The position numbers and the translations under genes are program-made. Shown here piece after piece: positions 1,930 through 12,894 of a DNA stretch of 64,000 bases. The notes beneath the pieces were generated by a model that ran no database searches, had not been told where the DNA came from, and saw nothing but the letters and a program-made list of their open reading frames with translations. The DNA comes from a virus: the IMG/VR virus record IMGVR_UViG_3300010354_000001, positions 1 to 64,000 of that record; one strand, given 5' to 3'. Position 1 is the first letter of the stretch, and every line of letters starts with the position of its first letter.

Positions 1930-4184
1930 TAGTTGAACCCGTCCTTAGATTTAAACGCAGACCCAGCACCTATAAATGCAGGAGCTTCTGGAGCCTTGTA
2001 ATTTCTAGCAAACTCCATAAAGGCTTTAGTATCCTCTAGTGCGGTAGAATCTTTTCCGCCGTGTATGTTAAACACTATATGGTTATTACCGTTATTAACT
2101 GTTTGTATAGGAGCTTTAGAAATGCTTCTTTCAAACATGCTATTTTTATCCATAGCAGTTCTTTGTTTTTCGGCTTTAAACTCTGGAGTGAGTACGGAGT
2201 CGGCAGTAAGTCCTCCATTATCTTGCAAGGCTCTTCTAGCTCTGCTTTCAGAAATATTGTCGCTTATAGCTTCATATCCTTTGTAGGCTCCATAGCCGAT
2301 AGCAGCAGTGCCTGCGAGTGCAAGTAATCCATAAGGGCCAAGAGAAGCCCAAGCGGCTACAGCCACTTTAGAGAACCATCCTATAGCACCAGAAGCAAAA
2401 GTTGCTATAGCAGCAGAGGCACCAGGGAAAATCTTCTGGAAAGCTAACACCCCTAACCCCATATCTCCTATAGTAGATAAAACAGATCCAGTAACCATAC
2501 CCAAAGCACCAAAGGCAACACCTAACGTACCTAGCCAAGGCACAGCTTCTATGATACCTTGAACCATCCATTTATTCTTTTTAGTTAAATCAGTTATGAC
2601 CCCTACTAACCCTCGCATATCTGTCAGAGTTTGTTTGAGAATTTCTTTACCGCCTAAATCAAAGAACATAACCGCAGCTAATTCATCGAACTGGGTTTTC
2701 AATAGATCCATAGCACCACTGACAGTATTGAGTTGATTGATAGCAGAGCTCCCAATCAAATCTTCCTTAGCAGCCTTCTGCATTCTAGCTACCTCAGTTC
2801 TAAGATCGGCCAACCCTTTAGTACCCTCTTTCGTTAACTGCATTATCGCTACAGCAGCTTCTTTTTGAAACACGTTAGATACGAAATCCATATAACTTTT
2901 AGGAGACACTAGCTCGTTTAAAGTTGTGAGCCTCTCGACTAAATAATCCAACCCTTTAAATGTACCTGTCTTTGTCCATACGTCAAAATCAAAGCCAGTT
3001 TCTTTTTTGAAATCGGCAATGGTGTCTGTAGCTTTTTTAGTAGGGGAAGCAAATCCTAACATTGCAGATTTAAAAGATCTAGTAGCTTGCCCGCCACGTA
3101 AATTACCTTTACCTATTTGGGTAATCATGGCTAGAGATTCTGGCAGCGAGACTCCCATTACCTCCATAGTAGAAGCCACATACTTCATTGATTCATTGAT
3201 GTCACTTACAGATATAATAGAATCATTAGCAGCTTGAACTACCATGTTTAAAGCATCACGAGTATCGTAGCCAGTAGAGCGTAAAGTTTTATCCTTACTT
3301 AGAGATTTACTGAAAGTAGCTTGTATCTGAGATAATATCTTCATGGCAGTCTCAGGAGATTCGCCCGTAGCTAGAGACATATCCGCCATAGTCTTTAACA
3401 TACCTCTAGGGCCTACTTGTTTAGCTAAATCAATACCAGCTTTAGATAACTCTACAGATAAGTCTGCTAAGGTATTCATAGCGATACCACTCTTCAAAGC
3501 TACTTCTCTTATGTTAGACTCGGCAGTTTTTATATCGAACGATTTATCATCGGCAGATATAGCCTTCATCAAAGCAAGCTGTCTCTCTACGTGCATTGAC
3601 TTCTTCATGAAGTTATGGGCTGTGTAAAGAGTTCCTAACCCAGCACCGAAAGACATAAATCCCGCACTTACCATGCCACGACCTACACCTCTCACACCTT
3701 TAGCTATGGACTGTCTTGTCTCTTGCTGTTTCTGCTGCTGCATTAACCTGCTCTGCTCGGCTATTTTAGAGTTTAATTTAGCTTGTGCTTCAGAGGCAGA
3801 TTTAGCATCTATTCCATAGTTCCGTAACTTACCAGAAGCTTTGGAAACTTCATTATTTACAGATTTTTGTTTATTTTTATATTCTTCTAACTTAGCTTTT
3901 TGTTTATTTATTTGCTGCGTTAGAGTGCCATAAGCATCACCAGTTTTAGCGGCTTCTTGCTGAAGTTTATTTAACTTCTCTTCAGTCTTCTTAATAGAAT
4001 TACCTAAAGCTTTAGAGCTGTTTTCCAGCTTCTTCATCTTGTCAGTAATATCTAAAGCAGCATCTAGCTTTTTTGCTTGTTTTTCAAAACTTTTTACAGT
4101 GCTTTCAGCAGTCTTGAATGAAGCCATGAAGCTTCTAGCTAAAGTAGCTGTAAGCTGCATAGTTATTCTAGAGTCTGACTTCAT
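1929..4184 (-). CDS. Tail tape measure protein (TP901-like core)
   Basis: 751 aa; coiled-coil N-terminus, ESMKYVAS/GGQATRS core, hydrophobic Gly/Ala-rich C-terminal part; synteny. Confidence 0.92.
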   Translation of the reverse strand: MKSDSRITMQLTATLARSFMASFKTAESTVKSFEKQAKKLDAALDITDKMKKLENSSKALGNSIKKTEEKLNKLQQEAAKTGDAYGTLTQQINKQKAKLEEYKNKQKSVNNEVSKASGKLRNYGIDAKSASEAQAKLNSKIAEQSRLMQQQKQQETRQSIAKGVRGVGRGMVSAGFMSFGAGLGTLYTAHNFMKKSMHVERQLALMKAISADDKSFDIKTAESNIREVALKSGIAMNTLADLSVELSKAGIDLAKQVGPRGMLKTMADMSLATGESPETAMKILSQIQATFSKSLSKDKTLRSTGYDTRDALNMVVQAANDSIISVSDINESMKYVASTMEVMGVSLPESLAMITQIGKGNLRGGQATRSFKSAMLGFASPTKKATDTIADFKKETGFDFDVWTKTGTFKGLDYLVERLTTLNELVSPKSYMDFVSNVFQKEAAVAIMQLTKEGTKGLADLRTEVARMQKAAKEDLIGSSAINQLNTVSGAMDLLKTQFDELAAVMFFDLGGKEILKQTLTDMRGLVGVITDLTKKNKWMVQGIIEAVPWLGTLGVAFGALGMVTGSVLSTIGDMGLGVLAFQKIFPGASAAIATFASGAIGWFSKVAVAAWASLGPYGLLALAGTAAIGYGAYKGYEAISDNISESRARRALQDNGGLTADSVLTPEFKAEKQRTAMDKNSMFERSISKAPIQTVNNGNNHIVFNIHGGKDSTALEDTKAFMEFARNYKAPEAPAFIGAGSAFKSKDGFN

Positions 4185-7040: not shown

Positions 7041-7421
7041 TTACGGGAGTTTGTTGCTTAGTTTTCTGATAGCATCTTTGATAGCATCAAACTCTTCTTC
7101 CATGAAAGTTTTTAAGCTATCAACCTTATTTTGCATACTTAACAAGGGAACTAATGTGCTATTCATTTTCTCTACGTTGAGAATTAAATCGTGAATACTT
7201 TTCGTTATAACTGGAAAATTTACTGTAGCGGTATCTATAAACGATACCATTGATGTGAAAACTCTAGGTAACTGAGTAGTACAAAGAAAGACTAGAATTG
7301 CAATAAAGGATAGGCAAAGAGTGAATATTACTATAGGAATCCAGTTATCTACAAAAGTGACTACTATGTCAGATGCTATTTTTGCAGTTTCTTCTGTGAC
7401 ATTTAAACTTATAATTCCCAT
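7041..7421 (-). CDS. Small membrane protein, possible holin
   Basis: One hydrophobic helix (WIPIVIFTLCLSFIAILVFLC) then amphipathic coiled coil; holin role is inference. Confidence 0.55.
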   Translation of the reverse strand: MGIISLNVTEETAKIASDIVVTFVDNWIPIVIFTLCLSFIAILVFLCTTQLPRVFTSMVSFIDTATVNFPVITKSIHDLILNVEKMNSTLVPLLSMQNKVDSLKTFMEEEFDAIKDAIRKLSNKLP

Positions 7422-8678
7422 CGGAATAATCCCTTCATAGACATAAGTGCCTATATAAACTCACTTATGGTATAATTGTACTATGAGAGGATTTGAAGTA
7501 AAACTATATCCAAATAAATCTCAAATAGAACAGTTAAACAAAGAGTTTAACTGTTCGAGATTCATCTATAATAAGATGATAGAAATATCTCAAAAGAAAT
7601 ATCATAGAACAGGTAAATCTTTATCTGGCTATGATATGCAAAGTTATCTGCCTAAACTTAAGAAAGAGTTTGTATGGCTTAAAGAGCCTTCGGCTCAACA
7701 ACTCCAAATAACCTGCCATAATCTGGCAGAAGCATATAATAGATTCTTTAAAAAACTTTCTAAATATCCTAACTTTAAAAAGAGATCTAGCAAAGCTAGT
7801 TATACTGTAGTTACTAACGTAACTTTATTAGATACTCATATAAAACTACCTAAGCTTGGCTTAGTTAGATATAGAGGAGGAGATAAACCTTTAGGTGAAA
7901 TCAAAAGAGTAACAGTAAAGAAATCTGCCTCTGGCAGATTTTATGCTAGTATTCTTTTTGATACTAAAGAGACTTTACAGGAGTCTAAACCCTTTAGTAC
8001 TATAACTGGTATAGATTTAGGAATTAAAGATTATCTTATTTGTTCTAATGGGGATTTTATACAAAATCCCAAACATTTAAGAGTATCAGAAAAGAAGCTA
8101 AAAGAAAGACAAAGAAGACTTAGTAAGAGCCTGAAAGGCTCTAAAAAGAGAAATCAAAGAAGAATAATTTTAGCAAGAACTCACGAAAAGATAGCTTTTC
8201 AGAGAAAAGATTTTACCCACAAGGTATCAAAGATCCTAACAAGCAAATGCGAGAATCAAGCATTTGCTTTAGAGGATCTAAATATAAACGGAATGATTAA
8301 GAACCATAAACTAGCTAAGTCTATTGCTGACTGTAGTTGGGGAATGTTCAAGACATTCCTCAACTATAAGGCAGCTAGTCTTGGCAAACAAGTATTTACT
8401 GTAGATAGATTTTATCCATCTAGTAAAACTTGTTCTAGTTGTGGTATAGTTAATAATATGCTTACTTTAGATCAAAGGTCATGGAACTGCCCGCATTGCG
8501 GATCAGTTCATGACAGAGATCTAAATGCAGCTATTAATATTAGCAAAGAAGCGTGGAGGAACTACGCTAGTGGAGGGGCGATAAGCCCTGAGACACTCGA
8601 AAGGGTGGCTCAGGCAGCCCCAGCGAAGCTGAAAAAATCACTTTATATTCAGTAATGTCTATGAAGGGATTATTCCGA
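7421..8678 (+). mobile_element. Non-autonomous TnpB-carrying element bounded by perfect 24-bp terminal inverted repeats
   Basis: TCGGAATAATCCCTTCATAGACAT (7421-7444) is the exact reverse complement of 8655-8678; the only gene inside is tnpB, oriented against the late operon. Confidence 0.88.
7483..8655 (+). CDS. tnpB: RNA-guided endonuclease TnpB (IS200/IS605/IS607 OrfB family)
   Basis: N-terminal KLYPN..Q HTH, RuvC-I GIDLG, RuvC-II ALEDL, Zn ribbon CSSCG/CPHCG, RuvC-III DRDLNAAINI; all catalytic residues present. Confidence 0.96.
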   Translation: MRGFEVKLYPNKSQIEQLNKEFNCSRFIYNKMIEISQKKYHRTGKSLSGYDMQSYLPKLKKEFVWLKEPSAQQLQITCHNLAEAYNRFFKKLSKYPNFKKRSSKASYTVVTNVTLLDTHIKLPKLGLVRYRGGDKPLGEIKRVTVKKSASGRFYASILFDTKETLQESKPFSTITGIDLGIKDYLICSNGDFIQNPKHLRVSEKKLKERQRRLSKSLKGSKKRNQRRIILARTHEKIAFQRKDFTHKVSKILTSKCENQAFALEDLNINGMIKNHKLAKSIADCSWGMFKTFLNYKAASLGKQVFTVDRFYPSSKTCSSCGIVNNMLTLDQRSWNCPHCGSVHDRDLNAAINISKEAWRNYASGGAISPETLERVAQAAPAKLKKSLYIQ

Positions 8679-8697
8679 AAGAAGTGTACCTACAAAG
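8550..8697 (+). ncRNA. TnpB omegaRNA (scaffold about 8550-8677, putative guide about 8678-8697)
   Basis: Overlaps the tnpB 3' end; hairpin AGCGTGG-AGGAA-CTACGCT, GTGGAGGGGC..TAAG..GCAGCCCC..GAAGCT, 3' hairpin CTTTATA/TATGAAG, ends TTCCG. Confidence 0.8.
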
Positions 8698-9139
8698 TAG
8701 TTACGCTTATGGCAGTAATGTCATCACTGCCATCCCTAGTTAAGGTGACTTGATAAGTAATCCCATTAACTGTGGATCTGTAGCTGTTTAGTACATCTAA
8801 AGTATAAACAAAGTTGCTTAAAGTTTCCTCTGCTGTTTGATAAAAAGTTATATTTCCGTTACCATCTCTAGTGATAGTAGCAGTAGTAGGCATAGGTCTA
8901 ATGTTTTTTTTAGTGCTAGTTAGACTTGTTACGTTAGTTTGTAGGGTTGTTATACTGCTAGCAGAAGCAACTGCACTATCCCTAACAGTATCTAAAGCAG
9001 TATCTATTTCAGTTATAGCTTGATCTAAAGCTTCGATGAGTGTGCTTCCATGCACATCTTGACCTGGAACTGGGAAACTAAAATTAGGAGTTTCGTCAAA
9101 ACTGTCTTTAGCGTTGCCAACAATTATAGTTCTAGGCAT
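8690..9139 (-). CDS. Hypothetical virion protein
   Basis: 149 aa ORF in the structural operon; short coiled coil and two TRDG repeats. Confidence 0.7.
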   Translation of the reverse strand: MPRTIIVGNAKDSFDETPNFSFPVPGQDVHGSTLIEALDQAITEIDTALDTVRDSAVASASSITTLQTNVTSLTSTKKNIRPMPTTATITRDGNGNITFYQTAEETLSNFVYTLDVLNSYRSTVNGITYQVTLTRDGSDDITAISVTTL

Positions 9140-12696: not shown

Positions 12697-12814
12697 CGGA
12701 TTTATCCTTCTAGTTTTTGGCTAGAGTGAAATTATCGGCTTCGCCGAGTCTGCTTTTACTCTCGTATGAGTAAGTAGTCTTATTAACTCTCCACCTACGC
12801 CCATCCTAGGCGTA
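12697..12814 (-). ncRNA. Stand-alone TnpB omegaRNA-like scaffold, copy A (guide would be about 12696-12677)
   Basis: 82/84 identical to 61349-61432; aligns with the tnpB 3' scaffold with compensatory changes; ends GGATAAATCCG. Confidence 0.75.
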
Positions 12815-12824
12815 AAATTTCTTA

Positions 12825-12863
12825 CAGGTGCTTGGTTATCGCACCTGATTCAATTATACTACG
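12825..12863 (-). promoter_or_regulatory. -10 promoter (CGTAGTATAAT) plus leader hairpin upstream of omegaRNA copy A
   Basis: TATAAT at 12858-12853, then hairpin CAGGTGC-9 nt-GCACCTG (12847-12825); the same GTAGTATAAT motif occurs near 4812-4821 and 13873-13882. Confidence 0.65.
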
Positions 12864-12894
12864 TTCTTAACGTGTGCTAATGGGAGGTGGGGAA

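Follow-up and report, generated by a model that had tools for sequence, protein, structure and literature searches.

Elements of the IS200/IS605 and IS607 families have been described as devoid of terminal inverted repeats (TIRs) and as generating no target-site duplications (TSDs) (PMC13565253, PMC4810608, PMC6188088). Another setting for TnpB was reported by Altae-Tran et al. (2023, PNAS), who recognised six DDE transposase-associated TnpB branches (DDE-1 to DDE-6), all with inverted terminal repeats and with the DDE-6 transposase named as IS630, together with solo TnpBs presenting matching inverted ends and presumably mobilised in trans (PMC10691335). In eukaryotes and viruses, Fanzor1 and Fanzor2* are cargo of transposons with TIRs and TSDs (Bao and Jurka 2013, PMC3627910), and the guide scaffolds of Fanzors include TIRs and TSDs (Yoon et al. 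2023, PMC10711439). The element dealt with here, designated E1, lies in a stretch of 64,000 nucleotides (the window) that corresponds to the first 64 kb of the complete, 113,974-bp virus record IMGVR_UViG_3300010354_000001, which has direct terminal repeats and 36% G+C. E1 is probably a non-autonomous DNA transposon of the cut-and-paste type, having a tnpB gene and its omegaRNA gene as sole cargo. The presence of TnpB in prokaryotic TIR transposons was already published in 2023 (PMC10691335), and E1 is a well-documented new example.

The ends of E1 are formed by two arms of 35 nt sharing 89% identity in inverted orientation, with an exact core of 24 nt. No further sites for the repeat 22-mer were found in the window, where shuffled sequences predicted 0, or in the whole 113,974-bp genome. 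A preliminary description of this locus had claimed exact 24-bp inverted repeats around an intact tnpB, which was confirmed, with the repeat being single-copy in the genome. A 92%-identical element occurs in unrelated flanks in two IMG/VR contigs (L005 and L006), where the homology starts directly after AT with CG(G/A)AAT and ends directly after ATTCCG. The possibility that the arms were simply a palindromic target, such as a terminator hairpin, was discarded because they move with the element to other sites. The 390-aa product of tnpB matches PF12323 (HTH_OrfB_IS605), PF01385 (OrfB_IS605) and PF07282 (Cas12f1-like_TNB), as well as the ISDra2 TnpB structures 8bf8/8exa/8h1j (E = 3e-66), displaying the typical architecture of HTH, RuvC-like and zinc-ribbon domains with a D-E-D triad. 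The RuvC residues D178/E264/D346 and the zinc-finger residues C317/C320/C336/C339 are invariant across a 55-sequence alignment of the clade.

Natural populations hold both occupied and empty alleles of the E1 site. Homologues of the flanking 149-aa phage gene (83-96% identity) revealed the empty sites of three IMG/VR relatives (L248-L250), in which a spacer of 14 nt sets the two flanking genes apart and extends from the upstream stop codon to the ATG of the 126-aa gene. Moreover, when the contigs of four freshwater metagenome runs were compared with the region, two of them skipped the element: in that of run X16, position 7421 is joined to 8679 with TAC between them, and in that of run X3, position 7421 is joined to 8682 with TACAAA between them. 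The empty allele reads ...TTCCCAT-TAC-AAGAAGTGTACC... (CCCAT-TAC-AAGAAGTG in its shorter form) and the occupied one ...TTCCCAT[CGGAAT...ATTCCG]AAAGAAGTGTACC..., with the relatives and the two contigs supporting the boundaries first proposed for the element.

Copies of E1 were also detected elsewhere in the same phage lineage. At site B (runs X7 and X16), which corresponds to about 26.07 kb in a related phage, a copy differing from E1 at 25 of 1262 nt (98% identity) is flanked by ...CCATTTA-AAAAACAT/CGG and CCG/AAAAACAT-TTAAAC... (slashes mark the junctions), that is, by an 8-bp duplication; at given ends, an 8/8 match has a chance probability of 2.9e-5. More E1-like left junctions were present in runs X3 and X7, with the flank at site D matching 30/30 nucleotides of the genome at 71,782, a position that is empty in this genome. 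The element is polymorphic in this way, being found at at least three positions within the lineage. A second duplication came from the sister element E2, the tnpB of which occupies positions 79,587-80,729 of the same genome and encodes a protein with 58% amino acid identity to that of E1. E2 has its own inverted repeat (30 nt, 90%), unlike that of E1 in sequence, and an E2-type, guide-only mini-element located at 87.3 kb has 28-nt ends adjoined on both sides by the perfect 8-bp direct repeat TAGCATAC. Deleting this mini-element and one repeat copy restores the end of the neighbouring open reading frame (GSML-stop), and no empty site was found for it. The family therefore appears to occupy new sites and to leave 8-bp staggered-cut footprints, a DDE-type signature and not one of Y1 or serine enzymes.

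The E1 copy itself shows no such duplication. The preliminary description had taken this absence as a feature of the element, which holds for the E1 copy and not for the element as such, given the 8-bp duplications at sister insertions. The right flank of E1, AAAGAAGT (8678-8685), matches seven of the eight positions of CAAGAAGT, the 8-mer present in the empty allele; its left flank has neither the TA nor the 8-mer. A canonical insertion at TTA/CAAGAAGT would yield CCCATTA-CAAGAAGT[E]CAAGAAGT-GTACC, from which E1 could derive by a 10-bp deletion removing the left duplicate and the adjoining TA. Through this deletion, the GAAGGGA of the left end would have come to its present place, 8 nt upstream from the start codon of the 126-aa gene. 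Alternatively, a site-B-like donor may have given rise to the E1 copy by microhomology-mediated recombination; the flanks of the two have CAT (left) and AAA (right) in common. Either event would explain why E1 looks duplication-free and why the ATG of the neighbouring gene adjoins its end.

The target sites presented a further regularity. The 8-mer follows the trinucleotide TTA at 6 of the 11 sites, the expectation being 3.6% (binomial P ~8e-7), namely at the E1 empty allele (CATTA), site B (ATTTA), two sites in run X3, the 87.3-kb mini-element (TATTA) and L022 (TGTTA), a locus whose TnpB is 58% identical to that of E1. TTA may correspond to the target-adjacent motif (TAM) of TnpB, to a target preference of the transposase, or to both. 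The CCCAT-like TAM initially predicted was not supported, and appears to be an artefact of the peculiar left flank of the E1 copy.

The nature of the ends could be evaluated across 228 TnpB loci, which were scanned for inverted repeats with two kinds of control repeat scored alongside. Reversed-sequence controls reached a maximum score of 12, which was surpassed in about 6 of the 228 loci, these being E1, E2, L168 (52% identity), L064, L069 and L060 only; direct-repeat controls and most loci stayed at background. L022 and L005/L006 have imperfect repeats. Hence the repeat recurs among homologous loci (E2, L022, L168 and, imperfectly, L005/L006), in agreement with the preliminary description, and L022 and L168 keep the CGGA terminus of E1 with a different inner sequence. 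With an exact core of 24 nt, 35 nt at 89% and recurrence in the clade, these ends correspond to those of DDE-type elements. In this scenario, it is highly improbable that E1 is an ordinary tnpB-only member of IS200/IS605 (IS1341-type), moved by a Y1 TnpA acting on subterminal hairpins, with the repeat being incidental. Such affiliation could be suggested by the many relatives of 38-45% identity that adjoin a Y1 transposase and by the 8-bp subterminal hairpin in the left end of E1. However, the repeat is a true inverted one, non-palindromic and reaching the exact termini, it recurs in the clade with different sequences against direct-repeat controls at background, the copies have no tetranucleotide in common immediately 5' of their left ends, and the phage has no Y1 gene. 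The 8-bp duplications at sister insertions are, in addition, incompatible with peel-and-paste insertion. The original assertion that the ends are not in the style of IS200/IS605 was in this way corroborated, and extended to IS607, by the duplications at two insertions, the resemblance of the terminus to IS1595-family ends and the lack of a transposase gene. A group I intron or IStron was also considered and rejected, as tnpB is preceded by only 60 nt and no Rfam match was obtained.

Neither E1 nor the phage genome carries a gene for a Y1, resolvase-type or IS1595 DDE (PF12762) transposase, as already claimed for the element, and none of the 25 Pfam families listed, out of 50 matched by the 70 largest phage open reading frames, is a transposase family. 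The neighbours of the TIR-bearing loci are phage genes, none being a transposase. Movement would therefore have to occur in trans. The IS1595 family is the best candidate partner, not an established one, as judged from duplication length and end sequences. To catalogue IS1595 ends, 300 Bacteroidota genomes were combined with 80 loci of IMG/VR, giving 110 IS1595 loci, a small sample of possible hosts. A duplication-plus-repeat detector delimited 17 IS1595 elements, all 17 with 8-bp duplications, their termini being GGnnATTATATAC. The first 14 nt of E1 match the right end of one of them (L289_R) at 10/14 positions in a terminus-anchored comparison (null P(best >= 10) = 0.0097); L289 has 2262 bp, the TSD AAAATTTG and ends reading GG(C/T)GATTATCCC(C/T)TGA. 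TIRs are common to E1 and IS1595, and 8-bp duplications are seen at two insertions of the E1 family; E1 also agrees with the family profile in the T of positions 6 and 9 and the A of position 8. It differs in its first base (C, not G) and in positions 10-13 (CCCT versus the usual ATAC), in line with the modest significance of the match. The IS1595-like end noticed in the preliminary description was in this respect sustained, although the cognate transposase was not found: the autonomous partner bearing the E1 TIR was sought in genomes and is absent from the 110 IS1595 loci, in which scattered 2-mismatch matches to the TIR 14-mers occur, none confirmed at an element end. The likeness of some IS1595 ends to GGGAATTAT was set aside, as it is not terminus-anchored once duplications set the termini. 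Most duplication-delimited IS1595 elements (L289, L306, L329, L340, L379 and others) measure 1.9-2.7 kb, although some 0.95 kb would suffice for the transposase; by tblastn, the remaining 1-1.5 kb showed no similarity to the E1 TnpB.

As for the DDE-associated TnpBs, E1 resembles them in having a prokaryotic TnpB between inverted terminal repeats, with the 3' end of tnpB less than 250 bp from the transposon end. It differs in that no transposase-bearing relative of the E1 clade was found, so that it is placed in none of the six branches, and in that the 8-bp duplication of its family points away from IS630, with IS1595 as candidate. The E1 family also differs in having guide-only mini-elements and a right TIR that coincides with the omegaRNA terminal hairpin.

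Nine omegaRNA scaffolds could be aligned (E1, L005, E2, L022, L168, L007 and three stand-alone copies in the phage genome), all of which finish in TCCG, with the sequences diverging directly after it. RNAalifold returned 15 consensus pairs, compensatory changes being present in 9, and the fold of the E1 scaffold had z = -4.07, the right arm being the 3' strand of the last hairpin. Scaffold alignment and fold bore out the earlier notion that the right repeat is the 3' end of the scaffold, for which no Rfam match was found. As read from sequence, the locus has the layout of an omegaRNA gene, that is, a scaffold extending across the 3' end of tnpB to the element boundary, followed by a predicted guide derived from the flank. 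Positions 2-20 of the guide are identical to the X16 empty allele, as had been anticipated, whereas at position 1 the guide has A and the allele C. The first 8 nt of the guide (8678-8685) appear to be the right-hand copy of the target 8-mer, the one that survived.

Homing and retention are functions that TnpB of IS605 has been shown to perform. In the model favoured for E1, a DDE transposase supplied in trans by the host or by another element would recognise both ends and excise the cassette, which would reinsert with an 8-bp staggered cut, the best candidate enzyme being of the IS1595 family. TnpB and the omegaRNA would then cut the unoccupied allele, recognising the 8-mer and flank that come after a TTA-like motif, and repair in co-infecting or recombining genomes would copy the cassette in, resulting in homing or retention by analogy with IS605 TnpB. 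A pure homing element that does not transpose, spreading by cleavage and recombinational repair and using its repeat for an RNA or DNA structural role (for example, pairing in read-through transcripts), is an unlikely substitute for this model. The coexistence of empty and occupied alleles, the match of the guide to the empty allele, the lack of a duplication in the E1 copy and an omegaRNA terminal hairpin that varies with the left end tracking it are all in its favour. Yet near-identical copies at unrelated positions (the window site, site B, site D and L005/L006) are not creatable by homing alone, and duplications exist at two insertions. In addition, the likely promoter of tnpB is at the inner border of the left arm and the element's own transcript would therefore lack most of that arm. 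This promoter is inferred from a TGgTATAAT motif that would allow a leaderless tnpB mRNA; a simple promoter scan did not list it, and a -35 element is absent.

Phylogenetic analysis brought into consideration a third alternative. In the FastTree reconstruction, the E1 clade comprises 40 leaves with support of 1.0 and is tnpB-only wherever the context is known, about 35 members being known as proteins only; the metagenome and genome scans gave mostly relatives of 35-45% identity among the matches listed. The nearest TnpB relatives linked to any transposase are those of the IS607 family, with a serine TnpA. This raises the view that E1 might be a tnpA-less derivative of the IS607 type, moved by a serine recombinase without duplication through a circle whose joint would be a perfect palindrome centred on a shared CG. 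CG is found at both junctions of E1, L005, L022, L168, L064 and L069, and imperfect inverted repeats near the ends, with no duplication, are reported for IS607 (PMC6188088), much as the E1 copy is duplication-free. Among the serine-associated loci, L236 (965-987 / 2822-2844) and L164 (1767-1782 / 3751-3766) have IS607-type inverted repeats of 16-23 nt with the right arm beginning at the tnpB stop codon, and the right end of L236 shares AATGTCTATGG with E1; because of these relatives, the complementarity between left end and omegaRNA 3' region may predate the carrier swap. Nevertheless, an IS607 origin of the present mobility has a low probability. Serine recombination makes no duplications, and these occurred at 8 bp in two independent insertions of the family; the empty alleles have TA rather than CG at the insertion point; no resolvase-family gene exists in the phage; and the base following TCCG is A, G or T, unlike the fixed right-flanking base of IS607. 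E1 differs from IS607 also in having its repeat at the exact termini and no GG terminus.

Several observations weigh against E1 being a cut-and-paste transposon and should be considered together. The joining of the E1 clade to a sister group that contains all four serine recombinase-associated TnpBs is one of them, two of these four loci also having inverted repeats (16-23 nt) near their ends; the join itself carries no support value in the tree. The site B duplication depends on the reading of 30-nt loose-end consensus sequences, and a fixed-length test recovered 8 bp at two insertions only, site B and the 87.3-kb mini-element, with no clean duplication at most of the tnpB-bearing copies considered (E1, L005/L006, E2, L022 and L168). 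A transposase with E1 ends was found nowhere, so that the partner is deduced from duplication length and modest end similarity, and E2-type ends match IS1595 ends more weakly than E1 does (9/14, P = 0.046). Finally, the inner TIR varies between lineages with the arms staying complementary, which simple transposase binding does not predict.

This last point leads to a more speculative view of how the ends are maintained. The sequence of the last omegaRNA hairpin varies by lineage. Left ends complementary to this hairpin are present in E1, E2, L022, L168 and one mini-element, but not in the mini-element at 12.7-12.9 kb nor in the bare scaffold at 61.3 kb; the TIRs of E1, E2 and L168 have only the terminal CGGA in common. 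It is conceivable, though rather doubtful, that TIR and guide RNA are fused as one evolving unit, making up a multi-guide, transposase-borrowing homing system in a lytic phage population. The inner TIR would then be the omegaRNA terminal hairpin, drifting by compensatory change with the left end kept complementary, and guide-only mini-elements would program both TnpBs in trans. If true, upkeep of the ends needs more than sequence-specific transposase binding, for example that one end is copied from its counterpart, or that just the terminal ~8 nt are recognised.

The comparison with Fanzors is instructive as regards the cut-and-paste transposon favoured here. Both have a TnpB-family nuclease as TIR/TSD cargo, a TIR within the guide scaffold and non-autonomous viral copies. 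E1 differs in being a bacteriophage element with a canonical TnpB (390 aa, with the DLG RuvC-I motif) whose scaffold ends at the TIR, the duplicated 8-mer appearing to be the guide start and not scaffold. E1 would be a natural, population-level case of a bacterial TnpB moved from an IS605/IS607 to a cut-and-paste carrier, documented in freshwater metagenomes by alleles with and without the element and by several insertion sites, and paralleling the step thought to precede eukaryotic Fanzors. Its value resides in this documentation and not in a new principle, as the general arrangement was already published. The exact empty sites, the candidate TAM TTA, the compact nuclease and the defined scaffold make homing and the search for the transposase directly testable. 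The positions of all features are given in Table 1.

Table 1. Features of E1, its flanks and the related E2-type elements (window positions, unless stated as genome positions).
Feature	Positions	Strand	Basis
Whole non-autonomous cassette, CGGAAT...ATTCCG, 1256 bp	7422..8677	+	L005/L006 copy, empty-allele contigs, 98%-identical site B copy
Left terminal inverted repeat	7421..7455 (exact core 7421-7444)	+	Repeat search; single-copy in window and genome
Right terminal inverted repeat	8644..8678 (exact core 8655-8678)	+	Equals 3' strand of omegaRNA terminal hairpin plus TTATTCCG tail
Subterminal 8-bp hairpin in left end, CATAAGTG(12 nt)CACTTATG	7442..7469	+	Direct reading; kept in L005/L006 alignment
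Extended -10-like TGgTATAAT, 6 nt 5' of tnpB ATG, inside inner border of left arm	7468..7476	+	Direct reading
tnpB, 390 aa, intact	7483..8655	+	Pfam, structure match, invariant residues
omegaRNA scaffold over tnpB 3' end, last bases TCCG	8548..8677	+	Alignment, covariation, fold
Predicted guide AAAGAAGTGTACCTACAAAG	8678..8697	+	Sequence past the TCCG boundary
Flanking phage gene, 126 aa; ATG directly adjoins left end	7041..7421	-	Open reading frame list
Flanking phage gene, 149 aa; stop codon 8690-8692	8690..9139	-	Open reading frame list
E2-type guide-only mini-element: left end, TATAAT, scaffold, different terminal hairpin	12697..12890	-	BLAST to E2 ends
Stand-alone E2-type omegaRNA scaffold without left end, adjoining DUF2828 (Ro60-like) gene	61319..61440	-	BLAST to E2 ends; Pfam
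E2 cassette (L002/L252)	genome 79,540-80,811, outside the window		Own 30-nt inverted repeat
E2-type guide-only mini-element, 196 bp (L251 524-719)	genome 87,323-87,518		Left end, TATAAT, scaffold, right end

No DNA match to E1 and no TnpB above 43% identity were found in GenBank phages, BLAST of the element ends against the same phages gave nothing significant, and exact-pattern scans of IMG/VR (E1 TIR, E2 TIR and scaffold core) returned known contigs or chance matches only. Inverted repeats of 30-32 nt are present in another TnpB clade (43% identity), at L064 2381-3608 and L069 2394-3632 of IMG/VR; these two related phages share the insertion site, with CG at both junctions and no visible duplication.

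Regarding the two E2-type scaffolds in the window, the mini-element at 12697-12890 presents neither TIR complementarity nor a duplication. Both this scaffold and that at 61319-61440 may program TnpB in trans, and their terminal hairpins and downstream "guides" differ.

TnpB cassettes of the E1 and E2 type repeatedly re-tail neighbouring genes. The left arm of E2 gives an upstream phage gene its last codons and stop (..TYPINIR*), and the right end of the 87.3-kb mini-element, read inward, has a TIR that encodes a peptide tail matching ..TYPINIR*. In L005, the flanking phage gene (2511-3119, minus strand) runs into the right end and stops within the element. The phage carrying E1 encodes several DNA methyltransferases (D12, EcoRI-type, N6_N4 and C5) and a Mom-family protein, two sigma-70-like proteins, an RNA ligase and RlaP-type RNA repair genes, as well as DUF2828 and a Hint/homing-endonuclease-associated domain.

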